A stretch of 64,000 nt of DNA from a bacterium (GCA_016789445.1 JAEUQT010000001.1:131603-195602); one strand, 5' to 3'. Shown: positions 26,371 to 56,921, counted from the first letter of the stretch. Made by a program: numbers and translations. Notes: generated by a model not told the origin, from the sequence alone.

Positions 26371-26539
26371 TGTCGAGGGTGGGGGTCGGTCACGAATAAT
26401 TTCTGTCCCGTCGGACAGAAATTTTCGCGACCCCGGCTCGCGGTCTCGCCTGCTGGCGAGACATCGCTCCGCCTTTCGACCCCCACACGCTGTGTGCGCA
26501 GGCACACAGCCCTCGACACAAATCCACTTCGTATATTTG
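26371..26539 (-). repeat. tRNA-trailing element, subfamily 1 (after tRNA-Met)
   Basis: The 18-nt direct repeat tgtcgagggtgggggtcg occurs at 26371-26388 and 26540-26557. Core hairpins lie at 26388-26432 and 26443-26462. The inverted copy is cgacccccac (26477-26486) + hairpin + cctcgaca (26511-26518). Confidence 0.85.
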
Positions 26540-26613
26540 TGTCGAGGGTGGGGGTCGAACCCACGACCTTGGCTTTATGAATGCCACGCTCTAACCAACT
26601 GAGCTACCCCGAC
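26540..26613 (-). tRNA. tRNA with CAU anticodon (elongator Met, or Ile2 if lysidinylated)
   Basis: GTCGGGG TA GCTC AGTTGGTTA GAGC G TGGCA TTCATAA AGCCA AGGTC GTGGG TTCGACC CCCAC CCTCGAC A. It has a 31:39 A-A mismatch. Confidence 0.85.
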
Positions 26614-26723: not shown

Positions 26724-27143
26724 TTATTTCAACGTTCCTTTTACGCTCTCGAAAAACTCCTTGTCCTTGGGATGCGTGAGTAATTTCGAGACGTCATCGA
26801 TCGGAACCCATCGCGCCTCGGGATTATCAGCATCGGTCGGTGCAAGCGCTTGCTGCAGGGTCTTATAGAGGAACATATGGATACGCTTCAGCTCACTCGT
26901 ATCCTCTCCCTCCCCGCCCTTACCGATCTTGTAGCGCTCGTACGACCCGAGGTCGCGAATGAACGCCAGCTGCGTGACGCCTGATTCTTCGATAATCTCA
27001 CGCTCCGCCGCTTGCTGCGGCGTCTCTCCCGGATCAACATGACCTTTCGGCAGAGACCACGAATCACCGCGCTGACTGACGACGATCACCTCATTGAGCT
27101 GGTTAAGCACGATACCTCCTGCGCTTTCGGTCACGTTCTGCAT
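26724..27143 (-). CDS. NUDIX hydrolase
   Basis: ORF 26724..27446 trimmed to MQNVTESAGG. Nudix box GHVDPGETPQQAAEREIIEESG. The upstream 101 codons run through the repeat and the tRNA. Confidence 0.85.
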   Translation of the reverse strand: MQNVTESAGGIVLNQLNEVIVVSQRGDSWSLPKGHVDPGETPQQAAEREIIEESGVTQLAFIRDLGSYERYKIGKGGEGEDTSELKRIHMFLYKTLQQALAPTDADNPEARWVPIDDVSKLLTHPKDKEFFESVKGTLK

Positions 27144-27165
27144 GGCGGTAGTATGCCATATGTAC

Positions 27166-27425
27166 GCAGGGCGGGCTTGGTCAAGAACATTTCTTGCTTC
27201 CGTCGAAGCAAGAAATTTCTCGGCCCTGATGTTGCGGGGGCGGGCTTGGTCACGGATAATCTTCGCGCCGTCGCGCGAAGATTTCCGCGACCCCGGCTCG
27301 CGGTTTCGCCCACTGGCGAAACATCGCTCCGCCTTGCAAGTCCAGCACGAAAAGCGCACCGGCGCTTTTCTCCCCGCGACTGCACAAACACAAAACCGCC
27401 CGTACGGCGGCTTTGTGTTTGCTTG
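27166..27425 (-). repeat. tRNA-trailing element, subfamily 1, tandem (one short plus one full copy; after initiator-like tRNA)
   Basis: The direct copy gttgcgggggcggg at 27231-27244 matches 27425-27438. A second degenerate copy gcagggcgggcttg lies at 27166-27179. The core hairpin P-a is at 27303-27322. The inverted copy is tgcaagtcc + hairpin + ccccgc, and a terminator hairpin lies at ~27391-27415. Confidence 0.85.
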
Positions 27426-27497
27426 TTGCGGGGGCGGGACTTGCACCCGCGACCTCCAGGTTATGAGCCTGGCGAGCTACTACTGCTCCACCCCGCT
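27426..27497 (-). tRNA. tRNA-Met (CAU), initiator-like, with non-canonical D- and T-loops
   Basis: A GCGGGG TG GAGC AGTAGTA GCTC G CCAGG CTCATAA CCTGG AGGTC GCGGG TGCAAGT CCCGC CCCCGCA A. It has a 1:72 A-A mismatch, no GG in the D-loop, and G at T-loop position 55. Confidence 0.75.
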
Positions 27498-33466: not shown

Positions 33467-34053
33467 TGTACGGAGATCTGGCCCGAAGCTTCGACGATGA
33501 CTTCTGATTGTTCGCCGCTGCGAGACTGCAGCACGATACGCGCCCGGTCATCGAGCGTGGCCCCTGCGGAGCGGCGGATCATCGCATCCGGCTCGGGACG
33601 CCTGAAGAGCATGCTCAGCTGGGACAAACTACAGGTCTCGATCCCGTTCATCGCTCGGGCGCAGATATTCGCGATGCGGTATCCGCCGTTGAGCGTGGTC
33701 GAGGTGACCGTCTCTCCTGTATCGAAAACGCCGTTCTGGTTCACATCCCCGAACAGCACGTACGAACTCAGGGCATCCTCTGCCGGCTGCGTGATATGGA
33801 TCCCGTATCCCACATCGAAATTGACTCCTTGATACCGACGCACGGCGATACCGTAGACCTGTGCCTGACGGACCGAAAGCGCCATGTCATGCGCGAGGTT
33901 CTGTAAGACGATGAGATTGCCGAAGCGCGCGTTCGTCGAGAGGACCACGCCAGAGAGGATCATGAAGATCCCGGTCACTACCATCAATTCCACAAGACTA
34001 AAGCCCCGGGAAAGCCGAGAATCGGTGCGTAGGAATATATGAGAGCGAACCAT
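33463..34053 (-). CDS. pseudopilin with prepilin-type N-terminal motif
   Basis: ORF 33463..34467 trimmed to MVRSHIFLRTDSRLSRGFSLVELMVVTGIF. This is the only canonical start upstream of the G|F site, and it overlaps the pilD 3' end by 70 nt. Confidence 0.6.
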   Translation of the reverse strand: MVRSHIFLRTDSRLSRGFSLVELMVVTGIFMILSGVVLSTNARFGNLIVLQNLAHDMALSVRQAQVYGIAVRRYQGVNFDVGYGIHITQPAEDALSSYVLFGDVNQNGVFDTGETVTSTTLNGGYRIANICARAMNGIETCSLSQLSMLFRRPEPDAMIRRSAGATLDDRARIVLQSRSGEQSEVIVEASGQISVQ

Positions 34054-34835
34054 ACGATGCTGGTGCCGATGATGAGGAACGGTCCGAACGGCACTTCGCT
34101 CTTCATTGTAAATCCCTCCTTCCCTCCTCCCAAGCGAGTTATCCCAAGAGAATGGAGGACCTTCACGATATGCGGAAGCGGAATAAGGATGAATACTCCT
34201 ATGATCGCGCCGATGACGAAAGAATACATGAGCGCCAAATATCCGTACCCAAGGCCGAGAAGCCATCCCATACCGAGCGCGAATTTCACATCGCCGAACC
34301 CCATCCACGTACCACGCGAGATGAGCCACATGAGGAAAAGCGGGAGCGAAACCAGCGGCCCTGCCACGAGAAGCCACACGTAGGGCACCCACTCCCCCGT
34401 TGGCGCAAAGAGATACATGAGATAGAGGGAGAATACGAGCGCCAGAGCATTGAAACTCCACACCCATCGATCAGGCATGATCATGTGGTAGAGGTCGTAC
34501 ACGAATATCGCGATGCAGAAAATCGCAATCGCGCACCCGATCACCTGCGCGATAAGAGGAAGCGGCGCGAGACCGAGCATAAGAAACGAGATTCCTGCCG
34601 CGAGTTCGACTACGGGATACTGGACGGAGATCGAGGCACGGCACGAGGAGCACTTCCCGCGCAGCATGAGCCACGAAAGGACGGGAAGAAGCTCGTGCCA
34701 TGCAAGCACCCTGCCGCATTTCGGACACGAACTTCGTCCATCAAGCGCGCGCGTGCCGTGGCGAAGGATGAGCACATTCGTGAAGCTGCCGAAGATGAGG
34801 CCGAATCCGAGCCAGACGACGGCCTCGTAGAGCAT
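33984..34835 (-). CDS. pilD: prepilin peptidase (A24 family)
   Basis: The N-terminal C..C...L......P..S......G.C..C zinc motif, plus a polytopic region with GFGDVKF-type aspartates. Confidence 0.9.
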   Translation of the reverse strand: MLYEAVVWLGFGLIFGSFTNVLILRHGTRALDGRSSCPKCGRVLAWHELLPVLSWLMLRGKCSSCRASISVQYPVVELAAGISFLMLGLAPLPLIAQVIGCAIAIFCIAIFVYDLYHMIMPDRWVWSFNALALVFSLYLMYLFAPTGEWVPYVWLLVAGPLVSLPLFLMWLISRGTWMGFGDVKFALGMGWLLGLGYGYLALMYSFVIGAIIGVFILIPLPHIVKVLHSLGITRLGGGKEGFTMKSEVPFGPFLIIGTSIVWFALIYSYAPILGFPGALVLWN

Positions 34836-34896
34836 GCGGAGATTCTAACAGAAAAGCACACCTCTCGGTGTGCTTTTCCTTCAGAACAGAGAGAAA

Positions 34897-35388
34897 CTAC
34901 GGCGTTACGCAGAAGCGCGCGGTCGCACCACTGTCAGAGCAGTCGATGCCGCCGATCGGATTGGTATCAACATCGCCCGCAGGAACGGCCGAAGATCCAC
35001 CTTCGATATCAGCACCAATGACATAGCCTGGGCACGCTGGAGACGTTGTCGTACATGCAGTCGTACCGTCTGCCGCGAGCGCTGCATAGCTGTACGGCGC
35101 GAGCGTCGTCGGATCAAGCGGAAGCGCCGAGATGTACTTGCTGGTGACGAGCACCGACGTGGTTGCTGAGGCAAACGCTTCGGTAGCCGTCGGGAAACGC
35201 TGGTTTGCATCGTAGTAAAGCTCAAGCGCCAACTGAAGCTGCTTGATGTCGGAGATACGGCGTGCATCGCGACCCTTCTTACGGGCGCTGTTGAGTGACG
35301 CCAGGACGACCGACGAGAGGATACCGATGATGGCGATCACCACGAGGAGCTCGATGAGGGTGAAGCCGCGCTGAGATCGATTAAACAT
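34897..35388 (-). CDS. type IV pilin (major-pilin-like), paralog A
   Basis: MFNRSQRGFTLIELLVVIAIIGILSSVVLASL. The C-terminal domain contains Cys pairs. Confidence 0.88.
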   Translation of the reverse strand: MFNRSQRGFTLIELLVVIAIIGILSSVVLASLNSARKKGRDARRISDIKQLQLALELYYDANQRFPTATEAFASATTSVLVTSKYISALPLDPTTLAPYSYAALAADGTTACTTTSPACPGYVIGADIEGGSSAVPAGDVDTNPIGGIDCSDSGATARFCVTP

Positions 35389-35425
35389 AGTTATGATTGC
35401 GTTAATCCGCTAATGAATAACAAAC

Positions 35426-35872
35426 TTACGGTTGCTGACAGTACATCGGATCGGTGCAGGTTACGCTACCCACCGTACCGTCGATGTCCTGACTGAGCGC
35501 TGCGTTCGCCGTATCCTCAAGCGTTGCGCCGAGGATGTAGCTCGCACAGACACCGCCGCTTTGCGTACATGCTGCACCCGCGCTCGTAAGGTTATCGAAC
35601 GAGTACGAGCCCGATTGAGGATCTGTCGGCACGACTGAGATGTATGTCGGCGCAAGCTGCGAGAGAGCATCCGGATACTCGCTCGAGTTATTGTCATAAA
35701 AGAGCTCGAGCGCCAACTGAAGCTGCTTGATGTCGGAGATACGGCGTGCATCGCGACCCTTCTTACGGGCGCTGTTGAGTGACGCCAGGACGACCGACGA
35801 GAGGATACCGATGATGGCGATCACCACGAGGAGCTCGATGAGGGTGAAGCCGCGTTCATTTCGTGAAAACAT
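35426..35872 (-). CDS. type IV pilin (major-pilin-like), paralog B
   Basis: MFSRNERGFTLIELLVVIAIIGILSSVVLASL. Residues 8-56 are identical to paralog A at the DNA level. Confidence 0.88.
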   Translation of the reverse strand: MFSRNERGFTLIELLVVIAIIGILSSVVLASLNSARKKGRDARRISDIKQLQLALELFYDNNSSEYPDALSQLAPTYISVVPTDPQSGSYSFDNLTSAGAACTQSGGVCASYILGATLEDTANAALSQDIDGTVGSVTCTDPMYCQQP

Positions 35873-35978
35873 AGAATTGTGAATAAACGGTTAAAATTTG
35901 ATCGCTATGCACGCTACGCGCGATGCAATCATCATACGGCACATCACACTCCCCTTGTCGAGTGGGTGTGTATAACCG

Positions 35979-37184
35979 CTAGATACCTGACGCGATGTTG
36001 TAGATAGGCACGAGGACCGACGCGAGAAGGATGGCGACGCCGACGGCGAGCATGACGATCATGAACGGCTCGATGAGTGAGACGAGCGTGTCCACTGCGT
36101 TATTCACTTCGCGGCGGTAGAACTTCGCAATGGAATCAAGGATCGAACCCATATTGCCGGTCTCTTCGCCGATCTTGATCATCGCCACCATGATGCCCGG
36201 GATCTCCGGATGCTTACGGAACGCTTCGGAAACCGGCATACCGGCCTTCACGTCGACCGCTGCTTCGCGCAGGACGCGCTCGTACGTCGGGTCTTCGACG
36301 ACGGTGCCGGTGATCTCGAGTCCGCGCAGCATCTGAATACCCGATCGGAGCATGGTTGAGAGGTTGTCAGCGAGACGCGAGAGATAGAGGTTCTGATAGA
36401 TACCGCCGAGGACCGGGACCTGTAATCGTGCACGCGAGAAGACCACCTGACCGGTTTGTGTCTTGATGTAGCGATAGAGGAAAAAACCCGCAAGGACGAC
36501 GAGGATACCCCAGAGCAGTGCGTAATTGGCGAAGAGATTACTCATGCCGATGACGACGCGAGTATAGACCGGCACCGACTGCCCCACTTCCGTGAGCATG
36601 CCCGCGAGCTTCGGGATCACCAGCGTCATCATGAGCACCATGACGATGACGAACGTTCCCACGATGAACGCCGGATAGATGAGTGCGTTCTTCGCTTTCG
36701 CCGTGATTTCGTAGTTACGATCGAGGTAATCCGCGAGATAGGCAAACGTCTCATCGAGCTTGCCGGATTCCTCGCCGGCACGGATCATGTTCACATAGAA
36801 ACCGGAGAAGACTTCCGGATGCCGGGAAAGCGCCGCTGAAATCGCGCTACCCGCTTGGATATCCGATGCGATCGCGGAGAGTTTTGCAGCAAGCTGCGGC
36901 GTGCGTGCCTCCGCCGCAAGGAGCTGGAATCCGCGAAGCGCGGAAACCTGCGCCTCGAACAGCGTCGTCATCTGACGCGAGAGCATCACGATATCGCTCC
37001 CCTTGATACCGCTGAATATCTGGATGCTCCTCTGAAGGCCGACTTTCTGATCCGCCGGATCGATGGATGCGATGATGAGGCCGCGGCGCTGCAGAGCCGC
37101 GATCGCGACATCGATGTTCACCGCATCGACCGTACCGCTACGATCCGCTCCCTTATCGTCGACTGCCTTGTAGGAAAACAACAT
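35979..37184 (-). CDS. pilC: type IV pilus platform protein PilC (GspF family)
   Basis: Two GspF repeats, three transmembrane helices, 401 aa. Confidence 0.9.
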   Translation of the reverse strand: MLFSYKAVDDKGADRSGTVDAVNIDVAIAALQRRGLIIASIDPADQKVGLQRSIQIFSGIKGSDIVMLSRQMTTLFEAQVSALRGFQLLAAEARTPQLAAKLSAIASDIQAGSAISAALSRHPEVFSGFYVNMIRAGEESGKLDETFAYLADYLDRNYEITAKAKNALIYPAFIVGTFVIVMVLMMTLVIPKLAGMLTEVGQSVPVYTRVVIGMSNLFANYALLWGILVVLAGFFLYRYIKTQTGQVVFSRARLQVPVLGGIYQNLYLSRLADNLSTMLRSGIQMLRGLEITGTVVEDPTYERVLREAAVDVKAGMPVSEAFRKHPEIPGIMVAMIKIGEETGNMGSILDSIAKFYRREVNNAVDTLVSLIEPFMIVMLAVGVAILLASVLVPIYNIASGI

Positions 37185-37190
37185 ACTGGC

Positions 37191-38258
37191 TTAGAGCAAT
37201 TTCTGGAGCACGTTCGGATTGAGCGAATACTGGTAGGCGGTCTCGACGGTGATCTCTCCGCGCGAGACGAGTTCCGAAAGCGAGCGATTCATATCGATCA
37301 TGCCTTCCGCGGAAGAGGTCTCGATGACCGTATTGATCTCGTGCGTGCGTTTCTCGCGGATAAGATTCGCGACGGCTTTATTGTTGATGAGAAGCTCGTA
37401 CGCCGGGATGAGACCACCGGAAATGCGCGGCACGAGACGCTGCGAGAAGATCCCCGCGAGCGATGAGCCGAGCTGCAGGCGGATCTGATCCTGCTGCGAC
37501 GCCGGGAAGGTATCGATGATGCGGTCGATGGTCTGTGCTGCGTTGTTCGTGTGGAGCGTCGAGAAGACGAGGTGACCCGTTTCTGCCGCCGTGACCGCCG
37601 CGGCCATGGTTTCCGGTCCACGCATCTCCCCCACCAATATCACGTCCACGTCCTGACGGAATGCGCTCACCAGCGCGGTCGCGAAATCCTTCGTATCAAG
37701 AAGCACTTCACGCTGATCGATGATGGAGCGCTTCGGTTCGTAGATGTATTCGATCGGGTCCTCGATGGTGACGATGTGCTCCATGCGTTCCATGTTGATC
37801 ATCTCGATCATCGCGGAGAGCGTAGTCGATTTGCCCTGCCCGACCGGACCGACTACCAGGAAGAAGCCTTGGTTCTTGCGAGCGAACGTCGTGAGGATAT
37901 CCGGCAGGTTGAGCTCCTGCAGCGTCTTGATCTGCTTCGGAATAAGACGCAAAGCTATACCTACTGCACCGCGCTGGAAGAAAGCATTGCCGCGGAAGCG
38001 GTTTCCATCTGCGGTTTGATACGCGAAATCCAGCTCGAGCGTCGAGAAAAACCGGCTCTGCTGGTCCTGGTTGAGAAGCACCTTCGCGTACCCCATCGTG
38101 TCCTCTGCAGTAAGAACCGGCTCCTTGAGCATCGGGGTGAGATTCCCCGCGACACGGATCGTCGGGTGTGCACCGGTAGAAAAATGAAGGTCGGATCCGC
38201 CTTCATGCGTCAGGACCGTGATGTACTTCTTCAGCTGTGCATCGTAATCGAGCGCCAT
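37191..38258 (-). CDS. pilT: twitching-motility retraction ATPase PilT
   Basis: Walker A GPVGQGKST, Asp box, Walker B ILVGEMR, His box TGHLVFSTLHT. The 355 aa size fits PilT. Confidence 0.9.
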   Translation of the reverse strand: MALDYDAQLKKYITVLTHEGGSDLHFSTGAHPTIRVAGNLTPMLKEPVLTAEDTMGYAKVLLNQDQQSRFFSTLELDFAYQTADGNRFRGNAFFQRGAVGIALRLIPKQIKTLQELNLPDILTTFARKNQGFFLVVGPVGQGKSTTLSAMIEMINMERMEHIVTIEDPIEYIYEPKRSIIDQREVLLDTKDFATALVSAFRQDVDVILVGEMRGPETMAAAVTAAETGHLVFSTLHTNNAAQTIDRIIDTFPASQQDQIRLQLGSSLAGIFSQRLVPRISGGLIPAYELLINNKAVANLIREKRTHEINTVIETSSAEGMIDMNRSLSELVSRGEITVETAYQYSLNPNVLQKLL

Positions 38259-38319
38259 GAAATATATTGTAACGTACTTTTATAGGTCCCCCTCCCTATC
38301 CACACGCCGATGACGCGTA

Positions 38320-38706
38320 TCACTTCATTCCGATCTCTTCCTTCACCATTGAGACGACTTCCGACGGGATCATACTCGCCTTCACGACGTATTTCTGCGC
38401 ACCGAGCTCTTCCGCGTGCTTGCGATCGGCATCGTTGCTCTGGTTCGTGAGCGCGATGAGACGCGCGGTGCCGCCGAGCTTCTCGTCGCGGACGCCTTTC
38501 AGGAATTCGAAACCATCCTGTCCCGGCATGGTGATATCGAACAGGATGACATCAGCTTTCGCACCGCCGCGCAGCGCTTCTATTGCCTCATGCACTGAGA
38601 AACACGAGATCACCGTGAATCCTTCCTGCGTGAATTTAAGGCTGTACATGTCGAGGAGGAACTTATCATCGTCCACCAACATCACTGTCTTTCCGTTTTC
38701 TGCCAT
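38320..38706 (-). CDS. single-domain response regulator (CheY-like receiver)
   Basis: VMLVDDD...ILFDITMPGQDG...K receiver pattern; 128 aa. Confidence 0.85.
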   Translation of the reverse strand: MAENGKTVMLVDDDKFLLDMYSLKFTQEGFTVISCFSVHEAIEALRGGAKADVILFDITMPGQDGFEFLKGVRDEKLGGTARLIALTNQSNDADRKHAEELGAQKYVVKASMIPSEVVSMVKEEIGMK

Positions 38707-38714
38707 AGTGAAAA

Positions 38715-40442
38715 TTAATTCGTTTTCGTATCTTCTGGTTCTTCAGTATCAGCGGGCGTCTCTTCGGTAGCGGCAGGCTTTTTCTCTTCCGGCTCTTCCT
38801 CCGTATCCAAGAGGAGCGATGAGAGCGTATTCACTTCAGAGAACGGGACCTGCTTCGCGAACGCTTTCATTGTAGCATCCTCGCGCATCGTGAGCATTCC
38901 CTGCTCGCGTGCCGACGCCCAGATCTTCGAATCCACCGGGTTGGTAAGGACGATCTTCTCGATTGCGGTCGTCATTTCCATCACCTCGAAGACCGCGGCA
39001 CGTCCACGCATACCCGTCGGACATGCGGCGGTACGCTCTGGCTCATACACGGTGTCTTGTATCGGGAATCGGTATTCCTTCGGAAGGCTCGCCATATCCA
39101 TTTCCATCGACTTTCGATCGCTGGCGGAGAGCGGTACTGCCTTGCCGGTACCAGGACAAAGCGTACGCACGAGACGCTGCGCCATCGAAAGGATAAGCAC
39201 CGGTGGAATGAGGTACGGCTCCACTCCCATATCGATAAGGCGAGGGATGGTGCCGACCGCATCGTTGGTGTGGATCGTTGAGAGCACCAAGTGACCGGTG
39301 AGCGCCGCCTGCATCGCGAGCTTCGCCGTCTCACCGTCGCGGATTTCGCCGACCATGATGACATCCGGGTCCTGACGGAGCGTCGTGCGCAGACCGTTCG
39401 CGAACGTATACCCGATCTCAGGACGCACTTGTGACTGGATGATACCGTCGACGTGATATTCGATCGGATCCTCGAGTGAGAGCACGTTCTTATGCTCGCG
39501 ATCGAGCTCCGCAAGCATCGAGTAGAGCGTCGTGGATTTACCGGAACCGGTCGGACCCGAGATGAGGATGAGTCCGTGCGGTCGTTGGATCGCGTCGCGC
39601 ATGAGACGGAGATTGCGTTCCGAAAGACCGATCTGATCAAGTGGGATGAATCCCTGATCACGATCGAGGATACGCATCACCACCTTCTCACCGGCATACG
39701 ACGGGAATGTGGAGACACGGAAGTCGATCTGGCGATTGTCGAATGACGCCGAAAAGCGTCCGTCCTGCGGCTTACGTCGCTCGTCGAGTCGGATCGAGGA
39801 GAGGACCTTGATACGGGCGACAACTGCGCGATGCGTCTCAAGCGGCAAGACGACGCTGGTATGCAGATCGCCGTCGACACGATAACGGACGCGAAGCCCG
39901 GCGGAGGTCGGTTCGACGTGGATATCGGATGCTTTTCCGTCGATCGCATAGCGCAGGATCGTCGAGACGATCTTGATCGCTGGCGCGTCCTCGGTGATTG
40001 AACCTCCTCCTTCGGTAGCTCCCGCAAGATTGCCGAGCTGCAGCATCCCTTCATCGTCGGTCTCTTCTTTCTTGCGACCACTGGTACGCTCTTCCGATTC
40101 GAGGTCAGAGAGCGCCTTATCGACCTCCCCACCCAAACCCTTATACATCGAGAGGATCTTCTGCAGATCCTGTTCGCTCATGCGGAAGATCTTGAACGGC
40201 ATTCCCGTCTTGCGGGCGATGAAGTTCAATGCATCGATAGCAGCGATGTTATCGGGATCCACCATGCCGACCTCCAAGACATCCTCGACGACACCGAGCG
40301 GCGCGAGCTTATAGTGTTCCGCGGATTCCTGCGGGATGAATTTGAGGACATCGTACGGGATCTTCTGCTCGCCAAGAGTACGCGTCGGGATCGCGTTCGC
40401 GGCATTTCCCTGCCCTGCGCCTGCCTGGACCTCAGGAGGCAT
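38715..40442 (-). CDS. pilB: type IV pilus assembly ATPase PilB (GspE family)
   Basis: Walker A GPTGSGKST, Walker B MVGEIRD, His box TGHLVLSTIHT, and a tetracysteine-like region. Confidence 0.92.
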   Translation of the reverse strand: MPPEVQAGAGQGNAANAIPTRTLGEQKIPYDVLKFIPQESAEHYKLAPLGVVEDVLEVGMVDPDNIAAIDALNFIARKTGMPFKIFRMSEQDLQKILSMYKGLGGEVDKALSDLESEERTSGRKKEETDDEGMLQLGNLAGATEGGGSITEDAPAIKIVSTILRYAIDGKASDIHVEPTSAGLRVRYRVDGDLHTSVVLPLETHRAVVARIKVLSSIRLDERRKPQDGRFSASFDNRQIDFRVSTFPSYAGEKVVMRILDRDQGFIPLDQIGLSERNLRLMRDAIQRPHGLILISGPTGSGKSTTLYSMLAELDREHKNVLSLEDPIEYHVDGIIQSQVRPEIGYTFANGLRTTLRQDPDVIMVGEIRDGETAKLAMQAALTGHLVLSTIHTNDAVGTIPRLIDMGVEPYLIPPVLILSMAQRLVRTLCPGTGKAVPLSASDRKSMEMDMASLPKEYRFPIQDTVYEPERTAACPTGMRGRAAVFEVMEMTTAIEKIVLTNPVDSKIWASAREQGMLTMREDATMKAFAKQVPFSEVNTLSSLLLDTEEEPEEKKPAATEETPADTEEPEDTKTN

Positions 40443-40445
40443 ACG

Positions 40446-40814
40446 TTAGCGTGAACCTTGCGAGGTGGAAGTTGCAGCTCGTGTCGTCGTCGCGGTCTGG
40501 GTCGGCGTCTGGGTCATTCCAGGAAGCGGGAGGAACGGATTCTCACGACCCACCGGCTCAGGAACAATCTGCGTACCGTTATCCTTGAGCGCGACGAATG
40601 CGGGATCAGAGAAAATCGTGCCCGAGAGCGTGATGGCGCGCAGTTGCAACAACGTCTCGACGACATCCTTGTCCGCTCCGCTGGACGTCGTCAGATCCTC
40701 GGTCGTAAGAAGCGCCTGTGGCGTCGTGTCACGCAAGAAGAGGTACCACGCCGCGGTGGCAGCGACCACGCTACCCAGGATCAGTATCACGAATTTATTC
40801 TGGAGTATCGCCAT
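40446..40814 (-). CDS. pilus-locus membrane-anchored protein (PilP-position)
   Basis: N-terminal transmembrane helix and a T/S-rich tail. The role is inferred from position only. Confidence 0.45.
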   Translation of the reverse strand: MAILQNKFVILILGSVVAATAAWYLFLRDTTPQALLTTEDLTTSSGADKDVVETLLQLRAITLSGTIFSDPAFVALKDNGTQIVPEPVGRENPFLPLPGMTQTPTQTATTTRAATSTSQGSR

Positions 40815-40817
40815 ACA

Positions 40818-41399
40818 TTATTTGAGCCAGTAGGTACGGAGCGTAATGTCGAATCGGTAGATCGGCTCACCCCCTGCTGCAGAAGCCGCATCAGCATCGA
40901 GCGTAAGGTTTACGACATCGACCAAACGGAGACTTCCCTCAAGGGCGGTAATGAACTCGACGAATTTCGGATACGTACCGCTGGTTGCGAATTTGAGAGT
41001 AAGCGAGTCGTAGGTCTGACGACTTGGCCCGATCGAGACCTGCTGTTCCGCACCGTTCGCACCCGCGGTGCCGGTACCCGGAGCATTGATGACGACGTTC
41101 TGCAGCGCGAATCCGTACTGGCTCGCAAGCGTATCGAGATCCAAGACCAGTCGGACGTTATCGACGTGATCCGGAAGCAGTTTGTGGAGTCGATCGACAT
41201 CCGTAGGATTGAACGCGTTATAGCGAGACAGCAACTGTTGCTTGAGACGCTGCAATTCGGCTGCTTTATTGAGCGCCTGATCATATTGGGCGATCTGGGC
41301 CTGCACGCTTCGGACACCATCGTAAGCAGGACGGGTGTAGAAGAAGAACAGTCCGCCGGCTGCTGCTAGGAAAAGGAGCGAGAAAAGTGTGCGTGTCAT
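40818..41399 (-). CDS. pilO: PilO-like pilus assembly protein
   Basis: N-terminal transmembrane helix, a coiled coil and a ferredoxin-like C-terminus, in the pilM-N-O order. Confidence 0.6.
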   Translation of the reverse strand: MTRTLFSLLFLAAAGGLFFFYTRPAYDGVRSVQAQIAQYDQALNKAAELQRLKQQLLSRYNAFNPTDVDRLHKLLPDHVDNVRLVLDLDTLASQYGFALQNVVINAPGTGTAGANGAEQQVSIGPSRQTYDSLTLKFATSGTYPKFVEFITALEGSLRLVDVVNLTLDADAASAAGGEPIYRFDITLRTYWLK

Positions 41400-42130
41400 A
41401 GCTGGGGTTCAGGTTGTGCGTCTTGTGCGGGCGGCGTCTGTTGTTGTGATCCCTGCGGCTGGGCGCCGGTCATGTCCTGCGGGAGACCGAACGGCGTAGC
41501 TGGCTCTTCGGGCGCCGCCTGCTGCTGCATGCTTGCGCCCCCTGCACGCACCGAGCGGTATCGCAGGCCTTCAGGATTGATACCGGACGTAAAATCGAAA
41601 CGGACGCCCTGCGGCGTACGATTCATATTCGAGAAGATCGGACTCGTGATGACGCCGCTCTTGGACAGGAGGTCCGCTTCAAGCGCGATGGAATTCACAC
41701 TCTGCGCGACACCCTGCATGGCAAGCGTCATGTCGCTGGAGTTCTGCGCCGAGAAATCAAGGGTCGAGAACGCGACGGTCTGAAGCGTCAGCTGCTGGAG
41801 CACATTGAAAAGCGCGGACGGTGCCACGTGGATCGAAAGGACTTCATCCGCAGCGCGCATACGATCATCAAGACGCGTGAGCTCCGCGATGAGCGCCGGT
41901 TCGAATGCCGCCTTGGCACGATTGAGCTGATCGAGCTTGCTCGTCGCGGTGGTGTTCAGGAACTGCACATACAGGAAGACACCGACAGCCAGCACCGCCG
42001 ACGCGATGAAGAGAATGAGCCCCAGCAGCATGAACATGTCGAAACCGCCGCCTCCGGGTCCTTTCGATCCGGGAGTCGGTGCAGCTACAGGCGATTGCGG
42101 TATGAACGATGAGCGTATGTTTGATTCCAT
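41396..42130 (-). CDS. pilN: PilN-like pilus assembly protein
   Basis: Single transmembrane helix after a short cytoplasmic N-terminus, a coiled coil, and a position after pilM. Confidence 0.6.
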   Translation of the reverse strand: MESNIRSSFIPQSPVAAPTPGSKGPGGGGFDMFMLLGLILFIASAVLAVGVFLYVQFLNTTATSKLDQLNRAKAAFEPALIAELTRLDDRMRAADEVLSIHVAPSALFNVLQQLTLQTVAFSTLDFSAQNSSDMTLAMQGVAQSVNSIALEADLLSKSGVITSPIFSNMNRTPQGVRFDFTSGINPEGLRYRSVRAGGASMQQQAAPEEPATPFGLPQDMTGAQPQGSQQQTPPAQDAQPEPQL

Positions 42131-42133
42131 ATC

Positions 42134-43285
42134 TTAGCCTTGTCGAAGTTCCCTTAAGGCCAGACCGACGGCTACCGCGAAACCAGGACCGATCGCCTGA
42201 AGGACCTGATCGAGGAATGCCGGTGATTCCGTACGACTGAACGGATTCGCGATTTCGACCTGCGCATGCAGGGCCTGATTCGCGAAACCAAGAAGACCGG
42301 GAAGCGATGCCCCGCCCCCGGTCAGGAGGACGTGCGATACGTCTTTATTGTATCGTTTCCCGTAGCTCAATAGTACCTTATCCGCTTCACCGAAGATCCT
42401 TTCCAGTGTGGATATGAGCGACGACTTGATGCGATCGTTCTCGTCCGTCGAATACGCAGCGGATTCCGTGAGGCCGCGCTCACGCTTCACGCGCTCGGCC
42501 TTCTCGAATTCCCACGAGAGCGATCGCGCGAGCTGCTCGGTCATCTGCTGTCCTCCCATGTTCGCGAGGTGGGTCATGCGCACGACACCGCGTTCGACGA
42601 TGTACATCTTCGTAGTCGACGCACCCAAGTCGATGACGAGGACGGGCGCAACGCCGTGCCCCAACGAGGAACGGATCGCGCTGAAGATCTCGATCTCGTA
42701 GAAATGCGTGGAAAGACCGGCACCCGTTGAGATGACCTGGTAGTTGCGGACCGTATCGTTATGGATGGCGACGAGCAGCACCTCCTGCCCTTTCGCCTGC
42801 AGCGGCGCTTTCCCTTGGATGCGATCGAACGCTTCATTCGAGCCCTCATCCGGCGGGATGATGAACCAATCGAGCATGACTTCGGAGACCTGCATCGGGA
42901 TATATTTGCGCGCCTCGATCGGAATCATCTGCTTCAGCTGTTCAGGATCGGTCTTCGGAAGATCCAGGATGGAGACGAGACTCGAGGAGAATGGAATAGA
43001 GATGCCCGCTGCCTTTGCGGTCACGTTCGCCTCCTTCATGAGATCCAGGAGCACCTGGGTGGTCTGCTCGGGAGAGAGCTTCACCACCTTACCGACGGGT
43101 TCTTTTGCGTAGGGGCCAAGCGCGATCTCACCATACGTTTCAAGAACGGCAGCGCCATGCGCGCCACGCAACTGCACGACTTTCGCAGAAGATGCGCCGA
43201 TATCCACTCCGATCACGCTCGTATCACCTTTTCCCGTGAGTGCACCGGTCAATTTCTGCGTCAAAGATCCCAGCGACAACGCCAT
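42134..43285 (-). CDS. pilM: PilM (actin-like ATPase of the type IV pilus)
   Basis: GVDIGASSAKVV and VIDLGASTT phosphate-binding motifs; 383 aa. Confidence 0.85.
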   Translation of the reverse strand: MALSLGSLTQKLTGALTGKGDTSVIGVDIGASSAKVVQLRGAHGAAVLETYGEIALGPYAKEPVGKVVKLSPEQTTQVLLDLMKEANVTAKAAGISIPFSSSLVSILDLPKTDPEQLKQMIPIEARKYIPMQVSEVMLDWFIIPPDEGSNEAFDRIQGKAPLQAKGQEVLLVAIHNDTVRNYQVISTGAGLSTHFYEIEIFSAIRSSLGHGVAPVLVIDLGASTTKMYIVERGVVRMTHLANMGGQQMTEQLARSLSWEFEKAERVKRERGLTESAAYSTDENDRIKSSLISTLERIFGEADKVLLSYGKRYNKDVSHVLLTGGGASLPGLLGFANQALHAQVEIANPFSRTESPAFLDQVLQAIGPGFAVAVGLALRELRQG

Positions 43286-49567: not shown

Positions 49568-50029
49568 TCAATTCACAAGCGCCATCCTCAGAGCAGCAAT
49601 GGTCGCCTCGATGCCTTTATTCGCTTTGCCGCGCGATCGCGCCTTCGCCTGTGCGAGATTATTCGGAGTGATGACGCCAAATCCGATGGGTACGCCGGTA
49701 GTGAGCATAAGCTGGGTGAGGCCGTGCGCGACGGCGTTGGCGATGTATTCATCGTGCTTGGTCTCGCCCTTGATGATGCACCCAAGTGTGATGACGACGT
49801 CCACCTTCTTCTTGATCAGTTTCGCGCTGGCGAGCGGCAATTCGAAACTACCAGGGGCACGCATGACCGTAATGGCCTTTTCAGGAACCCTCCACTCTTT
49901 GAGCGTTGCGAGTGCCGCCTCGAACATCGAGCCGGTTATATCATCGTTGAATTCGGATATGGCTATACCAACTTTGAGGCGGGACGCGTCACCGACTGCC
50001 TGCGCCTTCGCATAGTGGGAACGTTGCAT
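49568..50029 (-). CDS. ribH: 6,7-dimethyl-8-ribityllumazine synthase
   Basis: VPG(S)FELP, TKHDEY and GVPIGFGV motifs. Confidence 0.92.
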   Translation of the reverse strand: MQRSHYAKAQAVGDASRLKVGIAISEFNDDITGSMFEAALATLKEWRVPEKAITVMRAPGSFELPLASAKLIKKKVDVVITLGCIIKGETKHDEYIANAVAHGLTQLMLTTGVPIGFGVITPNNLAQAKARSRGKANKGIEATIAALRMALVN

Positions 50030-50041: not shown

Positions 50042-50623
50042 TCACCTTCCCTTCAGGGTCGCTAGATGACGAGCGATCAGATCTGTTTCGATATTCACAC
50101 GGCTGCCTTTTTTGAGCGCGCCGAGTGTCGTGTGCAGGAGCGTATGTGGAATGAGGGCGACCGTGAATGAGTCCGCGGTACGCGCGGCCACGGTCAGGCT
50201 GACCCCGTTCACGGTAATCGAACCCTTCGGCGCCAGATATTTCATATGGATGCGCGGGATGCCGATGCGTATCTCTCGCGAAGTCCCGCGCACCTTGATT
50301 TCTTTCACAACACCGAGACAATCGACGTGACCTTGCACGAAGTGCCCGTCGAGCCGGTCCCCTATTTTGAGTGATCGCTCCAGGTTTACGATGCTACCCT
50401 GCGTAAAATCTGCCGCGGTCGATACGCGAAGTGTCTCGGGCATATACGTCGCGCTGAACGAGCCCTTCCCAATCCCTTCGACGGTCGTACAGATTCCATC
50501 AACTGAGATGCTCTGTCCGGGTATCAGCTTCCATCCATGCGGCTTCTCGATGCGGACCTGGAGGCTTTTCGCTTTCTCCACTGCACGGATGCGCGCCTTC
50601 GCCTCAATGATGCCCGTAAACAT
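50042..50623 (-). CDS. ribE: riboflavin synthase alpha chain
   Basis: MFTGII start and a duplicated GxSIxVxGxCLT-like barrel motif (SISVDGICTTV / SITVNGVSLTV). Confidence 0.92.
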   Translation of the reverse strand: MFTGIIEAKARIRAVEKAKSLQVRIEKPHGWKLIPGQSISVDGICTTVEGIGKGSFSATYMPETLRVSTAADFTQGSIVNLERSLKIGDRLDGHFVQGHVDCLGVVKEIKVRGTSREIRIGIPRIHMKYLAPKGSITVNGVSLTVAARTADSFTVALIPHTLLHTTLGALKKGSRVNIETDLIARHLATLKGR

Positions 50624-50625: not shown

Positions 50626-50979
50626 TTATGCGAAATACGCCATGATCGCATCGATGTCGGCCGCGATCGCCTTCTTGAGTTCCGCCTCGTCTTCAAATCG
50701 CTGGTCCTCGCGAATCTTCTTCTTCAATTCAATCGTCGCCTCGAGGCCATAGAGGTCATCTTCAAAATGCAGGAGATGCGCTTCAAGGAGCTTGCGGCGC
50801 GTGTCTGCATACGCAGCCGCGTGATACGGAGAACCTTTGATCGTCACGATGGCAGCATAGATTCCGGAAACCGTCTCGTCCTCGAGCGGGATATTCAGCG
50901 TCGGGAAACCGAGCGTCTTTCCGGTCCCATTGCCGTGCTGGATGATGCCTTTGAAGATCATGTGCACGCACTGTCTCAT
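50626..50979 (-). CDS. riboflavin kinase domain protein (monofunctional RibF C-terminal type)
   Basis: G.V..G.G.G..LGFPTLN and E.H....D.DLYG motifs. An alternative start is MIFKG at 50961. Confidence 0.8.
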   Translation of the reverse strand: MRQCVHMIFKGIIQHGNGTGKTLGFPTLNIPLEDETVSGIYAAIVTIKGSPYHAAAYADTRRKLLEAHLLHFEDDLYGLEATIELKKKIREDQRFEDEAELKKAIAADIDAIMAYFA

Positions 50980-50982: not shown

Positions 50983-51148
50983 GTCACGGATAATTCAATG
51001 AGTGTCAATATCGAGTCCCCAGGGATAATTTTGTCGCCGTCGCTCCAAAATTTCCCCGGGCCTGGCTCGCGGTCGCGCGTACTCGCGCGACATCGCTCCG
51101 CCTCGGACCAGTAAACAAAAACAGCGCTCAATGCGCTGTTTTTGATTC
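50983..51148 (-). repeat. tRNA-trailing element, subfamily 1 (after tRNA-Ile), no distal direct repeat
   Basis: GTCACGGATAAT at 50983. There is an inner hairpin CCCAGGGATAATTTTG..CAAAATTTCCCCGGG, P-a GTCGCGCG tact CGCGCGAC (51072-51091), catcgctccgcc, and a short inverted match ggaccag. A bidirectional terminator ACAGCGC tcaat GCGCTGT lies at ~51121-51139. Confidence 0.8.
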
Positions 51149-51225
51149 TGGTCCGCCCTCTTGGATTCGAACCAAGGACCGCAAAGGTATAAGCTTTGTG
51201 CTCTAACCAACTGAGCTAAGGGCGG
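51149..51225 (-). tRNA. tRNA-Ile with genuine UAU anticodon, CCA encoded
   Basis: CCGCCCT TA GCTC AGTTGGTTA GAGC A CAAAG CTTATAC CTTTG CGGTC CTTGG TTCGAAT CCAAG AGGGCGG A CCA. Confidence 0.85.
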
Positions 51226-51260
51226 ATGCAAGCGATTATAGGCGCGCTTCCCTGTGGACG

Positions 51261-52400
51261 CTAGCGTATGACTTTCGCGACCGCCTTCGCGACTCGTTTG
51301 TCGAACATATCCGGCAATATCTTCCCTGCAGTCGGCTTCGGCGTGAGCGCCGCAATCGCCTTCGCGGCTTTCAGTTTCATTTCTTCGGTGATGCGCGTCA
51401 CCTTATGGTCGATCGCACCGCGGAAGATTCCCGGAAAGACGAGCGAATTGTTGAGCTGATTCGGGAAATCACTGCGTCCGGTTGCAATAACTGCCGCTCC
51501 ACCCTTCTTCGCTTCGTCCGGCATGATTTCAGGAATCGGATTCGCGAGCGCGAAGACGATCGCGCCCTTCTTCATGAGTTTGATATCTTTTGCTGTTGCG
51601 AGCCCAGGACCGGAAACACCGATGAGTACATCCGCACCGATGAGCGCATCCTGCAAGTTTCCGGCAAGATTCTCCGGATTCGTAAACCCCGCAAGCTCCA
51701 TCTTCTGGCGAGAAAGATCTTCGCGATGCACGCCGATGAGACCCTTGCTATCGAGGATGAGGATGTGTTTTGCACCCGCAGCACGCAAGAGATACGTGAC
51801 CGCCGCACCTGCGGCCCCTGCCCCGCTCACCACGATGCGTACATCTGACATCTTCTTCTTCACGACTTTCAGTGCATTGATGAGCCCCGCAAGGACGACG
51901 ATCGCGGTCCCGTGCTGATCATCGTGCATGACCGGTACATTCAATCGCTCGATGATACGTCGTTCGATATCGAAACACTTCGGCGCGGCGATGTCTTCCA
52001 AGTTTATGCCGCCGAACGCCGGCGCGATGCGCACCACTGTTTCTACGATCTCATCCGGCTCCTGTGTGTCCAGAACGATCGGCACCGCATCGAGATCGGC
52101 GAAGGTCTTGAAAAGAGCAGCTTTCCCTTCCATGACCGGCAACGCGCCAAGTGCGCCGATATTACCCAAACCGAGAACCGCGGAGCCATCCGAGATAACA
52201 GCGACCGTCCGGCCTTTCATGGTGTACTCGCGGGCCTTCTCTTTATTCTTCGCAACGAAGGTAGAGACCGCTCCCACTCCCGGCGTATAGACGAGCGAGA
52301 GATCGATGCGGTTCTTGATGGGTTTTGCCGGCACAATACGAAGCTTGCCGCCTAATTTCTTGTGGAGCGCGAGGGCTTTCTTGGAGACGTCTTTTGCCAT
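51261..52400 (-). CDS. NAD(P)-dependent malic enzyme (short, MaeB N-terminal type)
   Basis: LSLVYTPGV, the GLGNIG dinucleotide motif and FNDDQHGTA-like MHDDQHGTA. Confidence 0.93.
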   Translation of the reverse strand: MAKDVSKKALALHKKLGGKLRIVPAKPIKNRIDLSLVYTPGVGAVSTFVAKNKEKAREYTMKGRTVAVISDGSAVLGLGNIGALGALPVMEGKAALFKTFADLDAVPIVLDTQEPDEIVETVVRIAPAFGGINLEDIAAPKCFDIERRIIERLNVPVMHDDQHGTAIVVLAGLINALKVVKKKMSDVRIVVSGAGAAGAAVTYLLRAAGAKHILILDSKGLIGVHREDLSRQKMELAGFTNPENLAGNLQDALIGADVLIGVSGPGLATAKDIKLMKKGAIVFALANPIPEIMPDEAKKGGAAVIATGRSDFPNQLNNSLVFPGIFRGAIDHKVTRITEEMKLKAAKAIAALTPKPTAGKILPDMFDKRVAKAVAKVIR

Positions 52401-52495
52401 ATCAGCGGGAGTATAGCACCCGGTCTCCAGCGCTTGCTATTCCCTCCCAGAAGTGGATACTGGGCTTTTAGTGTGCTCTTACAAAGGAGGAATTA

Positions 52496-53722
52496 ATGGC
52501 ACCTCGTAGAGCGACCGCACCTGCGGCTCGCACGAAGCCGAAACTGAGGCGTAACCACGAGCTTCTGCCGTGGTACGACCAGGAAGTGCTGCGCATGTGC
52601 GCAGAGTTCGGCGGAATCTTCAACGCACACGCACATCTTGACCGTGCGCATACGCTTGAAGATACGTACTTGCGACACATCGGCACCACGCCGCTTGAAG
52701 CAAGCAGCCTCCCCCTCTCGGTGAAGCAGAATCTCGTCGGTGACCTCCACAAAGGACCCGCCTATACGAGAGAGAATCTCACCAAACGGATGAGTTACGC
52801 GATCGACCTTCAGATCGCGTATGGCGTTACGCGGCTCGATACCAATATCGACGCAACGCCTGATCTTCCGGATGATGGCCTGCTCGCTATCAACGTCGCC
52901 CTTGAGCTGAAGAAGAAGTACGCAGCGCAAGGATTCGATCTTCGCATCGCGCCGACACCCATCTTCGGGTTCAAGCACGATGAAAACGATCGACTGAGCC
53001 GATGGGAGGTCTTCGCGAAGGCAGCCGAGAAGTGCGATTACCTCTCGTTGCTGCCGGAAAAGGACGACTACCCCAAAGGAAGCAATCCTGACGGGAAAGT
53101 CGGTTTCAAGCGACACATTCGCATGGGAATGGAGCTTGCCTGCAAGCTCGGCAAGGAGGTGCAGTTCCACCTCGACCAGATGAATGTTCCCGGCGAATGC
53201 GGCACCGAGCGATTGCTCGATGTCCTCGAAGTACTGGACATGCCGTTCGTCTCCGGCCAGAAATTGCCGGCACCGACGGTCTGGATCATTCACATGATCT
53301 CGCCGTCGGCATACGACGAACTGCGGTTCGCACGCCTCATTGACCGCCTCTTGGAATTCCATGTGGGCGTCATCGTCTGCCCCAGTGCCGCGCTCTCGAT
53401 GCGTCAGCTTCGTTCTATCGAAGCCCCGACGCACAACTCGATCGCACGCGTTCTGGAGCTGGTGAAGCGCAGGGTCCCGATCCGACTTGGTACCGACAAC
53501 ATCGCAGATGTCTTCGTCCCGCAAGGCGACGGCGACATGCTTACCGAGATCAAGATAGGCGGCGTGGGCCTTCGGCTCAATCCTCCATCGATCTGGGCGA
53601 AGCTCGCGAGCGGCAAAGCGCCGAACAATGTCGATATCAACGGCGTCGGACGGATCCTCCACGAGGAACGCAAGGCCAACAGCAACGTCGGGCCTCCCGG
53701 CTGGAAACCAGCCGTCGAATAG
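52496..53722 (+). CDS. amidohydrolase-superfamily protein (cytosine-deaminase-like)
   Basis: HxH metal motif (FNAHAHLD), a later HLDQ, and GTDN..D. The opposite-strand ORF 52493..53746 is its shadow. Confidence 0.7.
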   Translation: MAPRRATAPAARTKPKLRRNHELLPWYDQEVLRMCAEFGGIFNAHAHLDRAHTLEDTYLRHIGTTPLEASSLPLSVKQNLVGDLHKGPAYTRENLTKRMSYAIDLQIAYGVTRLDTNIDATPDLPDDGLLAINVALELKKKYAAQGFDLRIAPTPIFGFKHDENDRLSRWEVFAKAAEKCDYLSLLPEKDDYPKGSNPDGKVGFKRHIRMGMELACKLGKEVQFHLDQMNVPGECGTERLLDVLEVLDMPFVSGQKLPAPTVWIIHMISPSAYDELRFARLIDRLLEFHVGVIVCPSAALSMRQLRSIEAPTHNSIARVLELVKRRVPIRLGTDNIADVFVPQGDGDMLTEIKIGGVGLRLNPPSIWAKLASGKAPNNVDINGVGRILHEERKANSNVGPPGWKPAVE

Positions 53723-53778
53723 TCGCAAAAAAGCCGCGGCGCACATGCGCCGCGGCTATTCTTTATTGGCTTTTTTTG

Positions 53779-55782: not shown

Positions 55783-56226
55783 ATGTCTCTCATCCGGAAC
55801 GACAAAGTCGGATTCGATTACACCATCCTTGAGGAGATCGAGGCAGGTTTGGAATTACTCGGCCTTGAGGTGAAATCCCTGCGTGCCGGACAAGGTTCTC
55901 TTAAAGGAGCACGCGTCGTCGCCCGCGGCGGTGAGGCATACTTGGTAGGAGCAACGATCCCCGCTTGGCAGGTGCTCAACGCTCCGAAGACCTACGACGC
56001 CCTGCGGACCCGCAAACTCCTCCTCTCAAAGAAACAAATTGCCCATATTTCAAGCGCCGAAGGACAGGATGGCTTGACAGTAGTGCCTCTTGCGGTGTAT
56101 AATAAAGGAAGGAGATTGAAGCTCGGTATCGCCATCGCCCGCGGTAAGAAGAAGGCTGACAAACGTCAGACTATCAAGGAACGCGACACGAAACGGCAGA
56201 TCGAGAGGACATTGAAAACTAAATAG
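55783..56226 (+). CDS. smpB: SsrA-binding protein SmpB
   Basis: GLELLGLEVKSLR...YD..R.RKLLL...I pattern and a basic C-terminal tail. It lies directly upstream of tmRNA. Confidence 0.93.
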   Translation: MSLIRNDKVGFDYTILEEIEAGLELLGLEVKSLRAGQGSLKGARVVARGGEAYLVGATIPAWQVLNAPKTYDALRTRKLLLSKKQIAHISSAEGQDGLTVVPLAVYNKGRRLKLGIAIARGKKKADKRQTIKERDTKRQIERTLKTK

Positions 56227-56346: not shown

Positions 56347-56730
56347 GGGGATGATTGGCTTCGACAGGGAGATCGATGCATATACATGCATGGCGGAAGT
56401 GGGTATCTTCCCAAAAACACCCAAACTCTAAGTGCAAACAAAACTGCACGGGGGGTTCTCTCGCCTATTCAGGTGAAGGACCTCGGCTTTGCTTTCGCGT
56501 AAGCCAAGGCAACCGTTCGTTCAGAGGTCTCCAATACTCTGATGCGAGCGTCATATCATTGGATACGGCTTCCCTATCACACCGTAGGTTAGTCTAAAGA
56601 AAGAGTGTCCGACGCGAAGCGATCTTGTGCGTTCCATACTCTCCGCGTTCAAAACCTTTGAACGCCCTACGCCTTGTAGATGTGTGTATGCGTTTCTCTT
56701 TGCACCGCGGTTCGATTCCGCGCATCTCCA
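56347..56730 (+). ncRNA. ssrA: tmRNA (SsrA)
   Basis: The 5' GGGGATGATTGGCTTCGACAGGGA pairs with the 3' ...GCGG TTCGATT CCGCG CATCTCC A (G3-U70). The tag frame 56434-56499 encodes ANKTARGVLSPIQVKDLGFAFA, then TAA. No encoded CCA. Confidence 0.93.
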
Positions 56731-56921
56731 CAGCCAATGCAAGCCGCCTTCCAGGCGGCTTTTGCATTTGCATTGCGACGGTGGAGATGAAGAAAGCGCC
56801 TGCGCGCTTTCTGCGGGGGTCTCGAAAGGCGGAGCGCTGTTCCGACAGCAGGCGGAACCGCGAGCCGGGGTCGCGGAAATTCAAAGGCGACGGCGTTTGA
56901 ATTATCTGTGACCGATTCCGC
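56731..56921 (+). repeat. trailing element, subfamily 1 (after tmRNA)
   Basis: Terminator AAGCCGCC ttcca GGCGGCTT TT (56741-56765). Inverted copy GGTGGAGATG + hairpin + GCGGGGGTCTCGAA. Core AGGCGGAGCGCTG, P-a 56839-56858, CCGCGAGCCGGGGTCGCGGAAAT...ATTATCTGTGAC (ends 56912). The direct copy cgattccgc at 56913-56921 matches 56713-56721. Confidence 0.85.

Follow-up and report, generated by a model that had tools for sequence, protein, structure and literature searches.

How AUA is told apart from AUG is the textbook example of one wobble modification, lysidine, fixing the codon as well as the amino-acid specificity of a tRNA. TilS, which together with tRNA-Ile2(CAU) forms the canonical bacterial system, is regarded as essential and nearly universal among bacteria, and the published exceptions are few: nine species in three clades with a TAT gene and no tilS were described in 2013 (PMC3575796), a survey with tRNAscan-SE 2.0 reported Ile3(UAU) in place of Ile2 in 17 genomes in 2021 (PMC8450103), and tRNADB-CE contains 19 species with TAT genes. 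The statement of an earlier note on the present DNA that UAU tRNA-Ile genes are known from few bacterial lineages, often lacking TilS, agrees with both studies (PMC3575796, PMC8450103), provided that it is limited to cellular bacteria.

The described systems fall at different distances from the locus reported here. In Mycoplasma mobile, a small-genome member of the Tenericutes, the encoded UAU of tRNA-Ile2(UAU) decodes AUA; U34 is unmodified, and AUG is misread by this tRNA on the ribosomes of E. coli but not on those of M. mobile itself, with competition from tRNA-Met helping (PMC3575796). Bifidobacterium (Actinomycetota) and Neorickettsia (Alphaproteobacteria) have no tilS, a TAT gene and a eukaryote-type IleRS (Taniguchi et al. 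2013, PMC3575796). Double systems, in which the same kind of gene occurs together with tilS, are known from Lactobacillus casei and L. plantarum, Cyanothece PCC 7424 and Ferrimonas balearica, and were described as a transition state (PMC3575796). In archaea, the tRNA-Ile3(UAU) of Nanoarchaeum equitans and Korarchaeum cryptofilum encodes UAU and dispenses with C34 modification, agmatidine or lysidine (PMC8450103).

We analysed a 64-kb stretch of bacterial DNA (the window) that carries a gene of this kind. The window comes from the core chromosome of a Patescibacteria/CPR bacterium rather than from a mobile element, with a GC content that is even along its length (52-60% per 2-kb stretch, near 57%); protein matches place the bacterium in the Parcubacteria/Paceibacteria group, near Ca. 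Kaiserbacteria and Ca. Adlerbacteria. Directly upstream of the tRNA lies the gene of an NAD(P)-malic enzyme (51261..52400, minus strand; Pfam malic and Malic_M), whose stop codon precedes the tRNA by 35 nt. Among 185,579 species genomes, the best matches of this enzyme are in CPR/Patescibacteria MAGs, at 73% identity in Ca. Kaiserbacteria and 68% in Ca. Adlerbacteria, followed by Moranbacteria, Nomurabacteria and others, and the exact protein was found elsewhere only on a 10-kb Logan contig (L001) with identical gene order. Downstream of the tRNA are a stand-alone riboflavin kinase of 117 aa (50626..50979, minus strand; Pfam Flavokinase), riboflavin synthase (50042-50623; Pfam Lum_binding) and lumazine synthase (49568-50029; Pfam DMRL_synthase). 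Besides the malic enzyme and riboflavin genes, the housekeeping genes around the tRNA include RecG, FtsH and SmpB/tmRNA; elsewhere the window encodes BipA, CTP synthase, FtsEX, a release factor, GatA, LigA, a type IV pilus cluster, DinB and a LexA-like peptidase, and no integrase, repeat or other mobile-element gene was seen near the tRNA.

ARAGORN recovered nine RNA genes in the 64-kb window, among them, at 51149-51225 (minus strand), a tRNA-Ile whose anticodon is tat; this gene has 77 nt including an encoded CCA (51149-51151). Rfam RF00005 matches the same strand at 51152-51225 with 69.3 bits (gathering score 29, E = 4.9e-13), and on the plus strand the TAT anticodon appears as its reverse complement, ATA, at positions 51189-51191. 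The RNA reads CCGCCCU UA GCUC AGUUGGUUA GAGC A CAAAG CUUAUAC CUUUG CGGUC CUUGG UUCGAAU CCAAG AGGGCGG A CCA. Its acceptor stem of 7 bp (CCGCCCU/AGGGCGG) consists of C1-G72, C2-G71, G3-C70, C4-G69, C5-G68, C6-G67 and U7-A66; the D arm, GCUC-AGUUGGUUA-GAGC, contains the pair U12-A23; the anticodon arm, CAAAG-CUUAUAC-CUUUG, holds a 7-nt loop (C32 U33 U34 A35 U36 A37 C38) with UAU at 34-36, U33 and a purine at 37; and a variable loop of 5 nt, a T arm of CUUGG-UUCGAAU-CCAAG and the discriminator A73 complete the structure. The earlier note's description of a TAT-anticodon tRNA with this anticodon arm, a canonical cloverleaf and an encoded CCA is therefore borne out by ARAGORN, Rfam and the structure itself, the arm being an exact match. 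This is a genuine gene with a canonical cloverleaf and, as far as its sequence can tell, a working one.

Candidate expression signals flank the gene. A perfect TATAAT hexamer (51235..51240, minus strand), read by eye, sits 9 nt 5′ of the mature end and may serve as the -10 box of a promoter belonging to the tRNA itself; at 17-nt spacing from it there is no good -35 hexamer, with TAGCGT in its place. On the other side, an intrinsic-terminator-like hairpin (51109..51144, minus strand; AAAAACAGCGC-AUUGA-GCGCUGUUUUU, followed by GUUU) begins 5 nt past the CCA end and folds at -21.3 kcal/mol (z = -4.75, with 0/200 shuffles equally stable). A scan of this strand for consensus promoters and terminators called neither signal, the TATAAT because the -35 is weak and the hairpin because the T-run is absorbed into its stem.

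The isotype of this tRNA and of the two CAU tRNAs of the window was set by published positional discriminators (PMC1635315). Similarity to E. coli tRNAs, which these discriminators replaced, was uninformative: the UAU tRNA had its best match in a tRNA-Arg (77%), and the CAU elongator matched only over positions 8-57 or 8-63, to tRNA-Arg or 'tRNA-Ile' genes. By the positional rules, C3-G70 denotes Met or fMet, whereas G3, A3, C70 or T70 denotes Ile(CAT) (Silva et al., PMC1635315); Ile(CAT) often has C4-G69 and C5-G68, and A11-T24 and G12-C23 mark fMet (PMC1635315). The tRNA(CAU) at 27425..27497 (minus strand; ARAGORN structure, Rfam 60.6 bits) has an unpaired 1-72 position (A1xA72), A11-U24, G12-C23 and two G-C pairs closing the anticodon stem, and is thus of initiator type. 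That at 26539..26613 (minus strand; ARAGORN structure, Rfam 65.2 bits) carries G1-C72, U2-A71, C3-G70, G4-C69, G5.U68 and A73; its C3-G70, G4-C69 and G5.U68 make it Met-type and not Ile2. The two CAU tRNAs are accordingly one fMet-type and one elongator, as the earlier note had said. Unlike the Met-type CAU tRNA, the UAU tRNA has the Ile-type acceptor signature G3-C70, C4-G69 and C5-G68, and its A73, U12-A23, G3-C70 and C4-G69 are features of Ile type. Its acceptor stem fits a tRNA-Ile with T as the wobble base, on this reading of the sequence. If a major CPR class uses UAU throughout, the Met-type CAU tRNAs of these genomes should not be relabelled Ile2 in annotation. Isoleucine identity was judged here by the published positional rule (PMC1635315) and by the identity set of E. 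coli IleRS.

Both CAU tRNAs have peculiarities of their own. The initiator shows A1xA72 in place of the usual bacterial C1xA72, stacks just two successive G-C pairs at the base of its anticodon stem (with A29-U41) and carries a T-loop, UGCAAGU, with G in place of the near-universal U55. The elongator has an A31xA39 mismatch closing the anticodon stem, a U32 and no encoded CCA. They belong to a minus-strand cluster at 25899-27497 in the order tRNA-fMet, a NUDIX protein gene, tRNA-Met and tRNA-Asp(gtc); the Ca. Yanofskybacteria MAG PMX_810_sub lists Met(cat), a hypothetical gene, Met(cat) and Asp(gtc) in the same order, and the cluster appears to be conserved across Paceibacteria orders.

To recover homologs of the UAU tRNA, a generic D-arm and anticodon pattern (TAGCTCA..TGG..TAGAGC-N6-CTNATAC) proved not to be CPR-specific, as it also matches viral contigs; relatives were therefore sampled with the malic enzyme as an anchor, which yielded 80 loci each from species genomes and metagenomes (160 loci, 2.19 Mb). 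ARAGORN identified 22 tRNA-Ile(tat) genes in these loci, 21 from CPR and one from a DPANN archaeon, along with 20 tRNA-Ser(gct). Thirteen loci have a malic enzyme with 64% or more identity to that of the window; 12 of them carry the gene, the exception being a 3-kb contig. In all, the tRNA adjoins the malic enzyme in 21 CPR contigs of relatives, among them L002-L006, L204, L205, L207, L209, L211, L215 and L217. This synteny spans genomes labelled as Kaiserbacteria, Adlerbacteria, Nomurabacteria and Parcubacteria. All 21 CPR homologs share the TAT anticodon of the window copy, none having CAT, and when 20 distinct CPR copies are aligned, the loop CUUAUAC, A73 and U12-A23 are invariant, while G3-C70 is found in 17/20 copies and C4-G69 in 14/20, the remainder having U-A. 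Across the 20 distinct homologs, 99.8% of stem cells are paired, two-sided changes occur in 16 of 21 pairs, and the covariation score of 0.585 compares with 0.167 after shuffling (reached in 0/500 cases) and at most 0.141 with slid partners. These comparisons indicate that the gene is under purifying selection for tRNA function, and that its UAU anticodon is neither a sequencing error nor a recent mutation. The CCA encoded by the window copy is missing from most homologs in relatives.

The central question is whether UAU acts instead of, or in addition to, the lysidine system, as the earlier note had put it. The Pfam annotation of the roughly 58 window genes contains neither the PP-loop TilS domain PF01171 nor an IleRS, and ileS was likewise not found in the window. 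A phmmer search with E. coli TilS against the window and the six-frame ORFs of the fetched loci (2.2 Mb) returned no homolog, and ARAGORN found no Ile2-type CAT tRNA in the 160 malic-enzyme-anchored loci (2.19 Mb). The window's 64 kb represent about 6% of a genome of roughly 1 Mb, and the related loci all sample one syntenic neighborhood, so that their lack of tilS is not independent evidence and its absence there says little about the genome as a whole. A wider view comes from PMX_810_sub, a 0.8-Mb, 90.7%-complete MAG of the class Paceibacteria (PMC9600506), whose full CDS annotation table has no entry for K04075, PF01171 or COG0037. One of its genes bears the label 'lysidine synthase', which is a Prokka name only; UniRef identifies the product as an N-acetyl sugar amidotransferase. 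Its RNA table lists one Ile(gat) and two Met(cat) and does not list Ile(tat); as this MAG is incomplete and from a different order, the full replacement pattern is not displayed there. No TilS was found in the first ~603 of the 1305 genes (~46%) in the gene table of the cultured Minisyncoccus archaeiphilus, and the supplement of Beam et al. 2020 has no COG0037 or TilS entries. The combined picture leans toward 'instead of', by virtue of the missing tilS and Ile2-type CAU tRNA in the window and 2.2 Mb of related loci and of the missing TilS annotation in PMX_810_sub.

The main competing explanation is a redundant isoacceptor, with TilS and a tRNA-Ile2(CAU) encoded elsewhere in the genome and the UAU tRNA as a second AUA decoder. 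We regard this as possible but rather doubtful. Lactobacillus casei/plantarum, Cyanothece PCC 7424 and Ferrimonas offer precedents and would be the right comparison if tilS were present here, and with only ~6% of the genome seen, both genes could lie outside the window. The UAU tRNA also keeps C4-G69 and C5-G68, pairs that are read by E. coli TilS; Ikeuchi and colleagues are said to have reported in 2005 that the enzyme reads them on tRNA-Ile2. Against redundancy, the TAT genes of the known double systems are sporadic at the strain or species level, whereas the CPR gene is syntenic over deep divergence, conserved and invariant in its loop; the annotation of PMX_810_sub, which is from the same class and 90.7% complete, contains no TilS, and no Ile2-type CAU tRNA occurs in any fetched locus. 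The reading that we consider probable is instead that AUA is decoded by the UAU tRNA alone, which has taken over from tRNA-Ile2(CAU) and TilS/lysidine: retention of the tRNA in relatives suggests that the lineage probably reads AUA directly, without lysidine, and the tRNA would be the sole decoder because the lysidine route had been lost in the lineage.

Replacement of this kind requires an IleRS able to charge a U34 tRNA, defined as one with a type-2 C-terminus or as a type-1 enzyme with a Trp -> Arg/Lys change. When the fetched loci were searched with E. coli IleRS by phmmer, the sole IleRS was archaeal (L074), with none from CPR; of two further candidates, L026 lacks any IleRS-specific domain and is probably a ValRS, and L229 is LeuRS-like. 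Published Paceibacteria genomes are more informative: the IleRS of PMX_810_sub carries DUF5915, that is, the type-2 C-terminus, as does that of M. archaeiphilus, an enzyme with its best match in Treponema. Many bacteria with a type-2 IleRS retain TilS (bioRxiv 10.64898/2026.02.03.703510), so that the IleRS type is permissive evidence only.

On the replacement reading, a minor isoleucine tRNA with a genomically encoded UAU would decode AUA in this Paceibacteria-group CPR bacterium, in place of tRNA-Ile2(CAU) plus TilS, as in M. mobile, Bifidobacterium and Neorickettsia. It would be charged by the lineage's IleRS, the two published Paceibacteria examples of which have a type-2 (archaeal/eukaryote-like) C-terminus; this C-terminus would take the place of the Zn-binding domain whose Trp disfavors U34. 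A37 would carry t6A37. Three candidate devices may then guard against misreading of AUG: an unmodified U34 combined with a discriminating ribosome and tRNA-Met competition, as in M. mobile; a modification of U34; or tuning by the context of the invariant C32/C38 loop.

Comparison with the described systems places the inferred one closest to Bifidobacterium and Neorickettsia, which keep the TAT gene lineage-wide and pair it with a type-2 IleRS (PMC3575796, PMC8450103). The differences are in phylum, here Patescibacteria, and in the footing of the tilS loss, which was established on complete genomes for those bacteria and is deduced here from a 64-kb window and a single MAG of 90.7% completeness. 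With M. mobile, the locus shares an encoded UAU that decodes AUA in a small-genome bacterium and a body resembling that of an Ile-type tRNA with a wobble C -> T change, with A37 after the anticodon (t6A37 in M. mobile) (PMC3575796). Unlike that isolated species-level case, the tRNA is conserved over a broad CPR group, and whereas the M. mobile IleRS is a bacterial type-1 enzyme adapted by Trp -> Arg865, that of the Paceibacteria relatives has the type-2 C-terminus. Relative to the canonical tRNA-Ile2(CAU)/TilS pair, the task of reading AUA and not AUG as Ile is the same, and so is the acceptor signature G3-C70, C4-G69 and C5-G68 (PMC1635315); the TAT anticodon, by contrast, makes C34 modification neither possible nor needed, and no TilS occurs in the sequences examined. 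The resemblance to archaeal tRNA-Ile3(UAU) lies in ultrasmall, host-dependent prokaryotes encoding UAU and forgoing C34 modification, but those tRNAs belong to another domain, replace TiaS rather than TilS and have unrelated bodies. Among our loci, a DPANN (Ca. Diapherotrites) contig, L074, has a tRNA-Ile(tat) at 2600-2676 (minus strand) adjoining an IleRS gene at 3-2537 (minus strand), and this archaeon seems to encode UAU directly, like Nanoarchaeum.

A recent acquisition from a phage or mobile element, retained to help translate AUA-rich foreign genes, is very improbable. TAT tRNAs with an identical D-arm are admittedly frequent in viral contigs (T34 in 60 of the 120 matches listed), yet the flanks here are housekeeping genes, GC is uniform, no integrase or repeat was seen beside the tRNA, and the gene stands beside the malic enzyme in distant relatives too and diverges with them, a synteny that effectively refutes foreign origin. 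In the viral loci L084-L203, the 120 matches listed for the D-arm plus NAT pattern comprise 60 with T34 and 56 with G34, and ARAGORN called at least 34 tRNA-Ile(tat) genes; UAU isoleucine tRNAs are common in viral genomes, and their rarity holds for cellular bacteria.

Codon usage bears on what the tRNA reads. Across the 67 predicted genes of the window (17,910 codons), ATC occurs 949 times, ATT 107 times and ATA 76 times (4.2 per 1000), with ATA present in 46/67 genes and accounting for 52 of 13,723 codons in the 41 Pfam-supported ones; AUA is thus in regular use. When 30 ATA positions were aligned to orthologs in the fetched loci, the matching residues were Ile in 68%, Val in 21%, Leu in 4% and Met in 1.5%, a profile like that of ATC and ATT and unlike that of ATG (Met 51%). 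Because ATA aligns with Ile as ATC and ATT do, AUA means Ile and needs a decoder. Hardly credible, then, is the idea that the tRNA is not an Ile acceptor, AUA being reassigned to Met as in many mitochondria, or that it is a decaying pseudogene: a bacterial tRNA-Ile would not usually have C1-G72 or C38, and Ile charging is deduced here from sequence, but AUA has the profile of AUC/AUU rather than AUG, A73, U12-A23, G3-C70 and C4-G69 are of Ile type, and near-perfect pairing with compensatory changes excludes decay. The tRNA is almost certainly a functional, AUA-reading tRNA-Ile, if its sequence features are taken at face value.

Whether the pattern extends to the whole branch is a tentative matter. 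It is quite possible that the lysidine system is absent from the Paceibacteria/Parcubacteria branch (Kaiserbacteria, Adlerbacteria, Nomurabacteria and relatives; thousands of species) and that AUA is read there by an encoded tRNA-Ile(UAU) charged by a type-2 IleRS. If this were true class-wide, the branch would form the largest bacterial clade, by a wide margin, to depart from the rule that bacteria use lysidine, and the exception would cover a large share of bacterial diversity. The branch would also have converged on the solution of ultrasmall archaea of the DPANN group (Nanoarchaeum, the Diapherotrites contig L074), and this would imply a lineage-specific block on the reading of AUG by U34, through U34 modification, the C32/C38 loop or ribosomal adaptation, for which the cultured M. 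archaeiphilus would provide an experimental system. In these lineages, moreover, a missing TilS would no longer point to an incomplete genome; TIGR02432, the TilS N-terminal model, is one of the GTDB bac120 markers. A literature search on lysidine or TilS together with Patescibacteria or CPR found nothing relevant, and the CPR tRNA-Ile(UAU) therefore appears undescribed within the literature searched, even though it is visible to anyone running a tRNA finder on such MAGs. An encoded tRNA-Ile(UAU) as a kind is already known.

Several other features of the window deserve mention. The riboflavin kinase (50626-50979, minus strand), upstream of ribE and ribH, consists of a Flavokinase domain alone and lacks the FAD-synthetase half found in bacterial RibF. 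A gene for a 408-aa protein without a Pfam match (52496-53722, plus strand) separates the malic enzyme from ftsH; it overlaps an equally long antisense ORF at 52493-53746 (minus strand), with gene callers and codon-position GC favoring the plus strand, and has a single ortholog among the fetched loci. The tmRNA (56347-56731, plus strand), directly downstream of smpB (55783-56226, plus strand), has an unusually long tag, ANKTARGVLSPIQVKDLGFAFA, which is near-identical in the relative L004 (ANKTARGILSPIQAKDLGLVFA) and differs in L027. The release-factor gene at 20534-21442 (minus strand) is short, at most 302 aa, and its PCRF match starts from profile position 86, so that much of the N-terminal domain is seemingly missing; no programmed frameshift site (CUU UGA) was seen upstream of this RF2-like gene. 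Finally, the type IV pilus cluster at 32891-43285 (minus strand) encodes PilM, a PilO-like protein, two T2SSE ATPases, T2SSF, a prepilin peptidase and three N_methyl pilins, and is of a kind typical of episymbiotic CPR bacteria.
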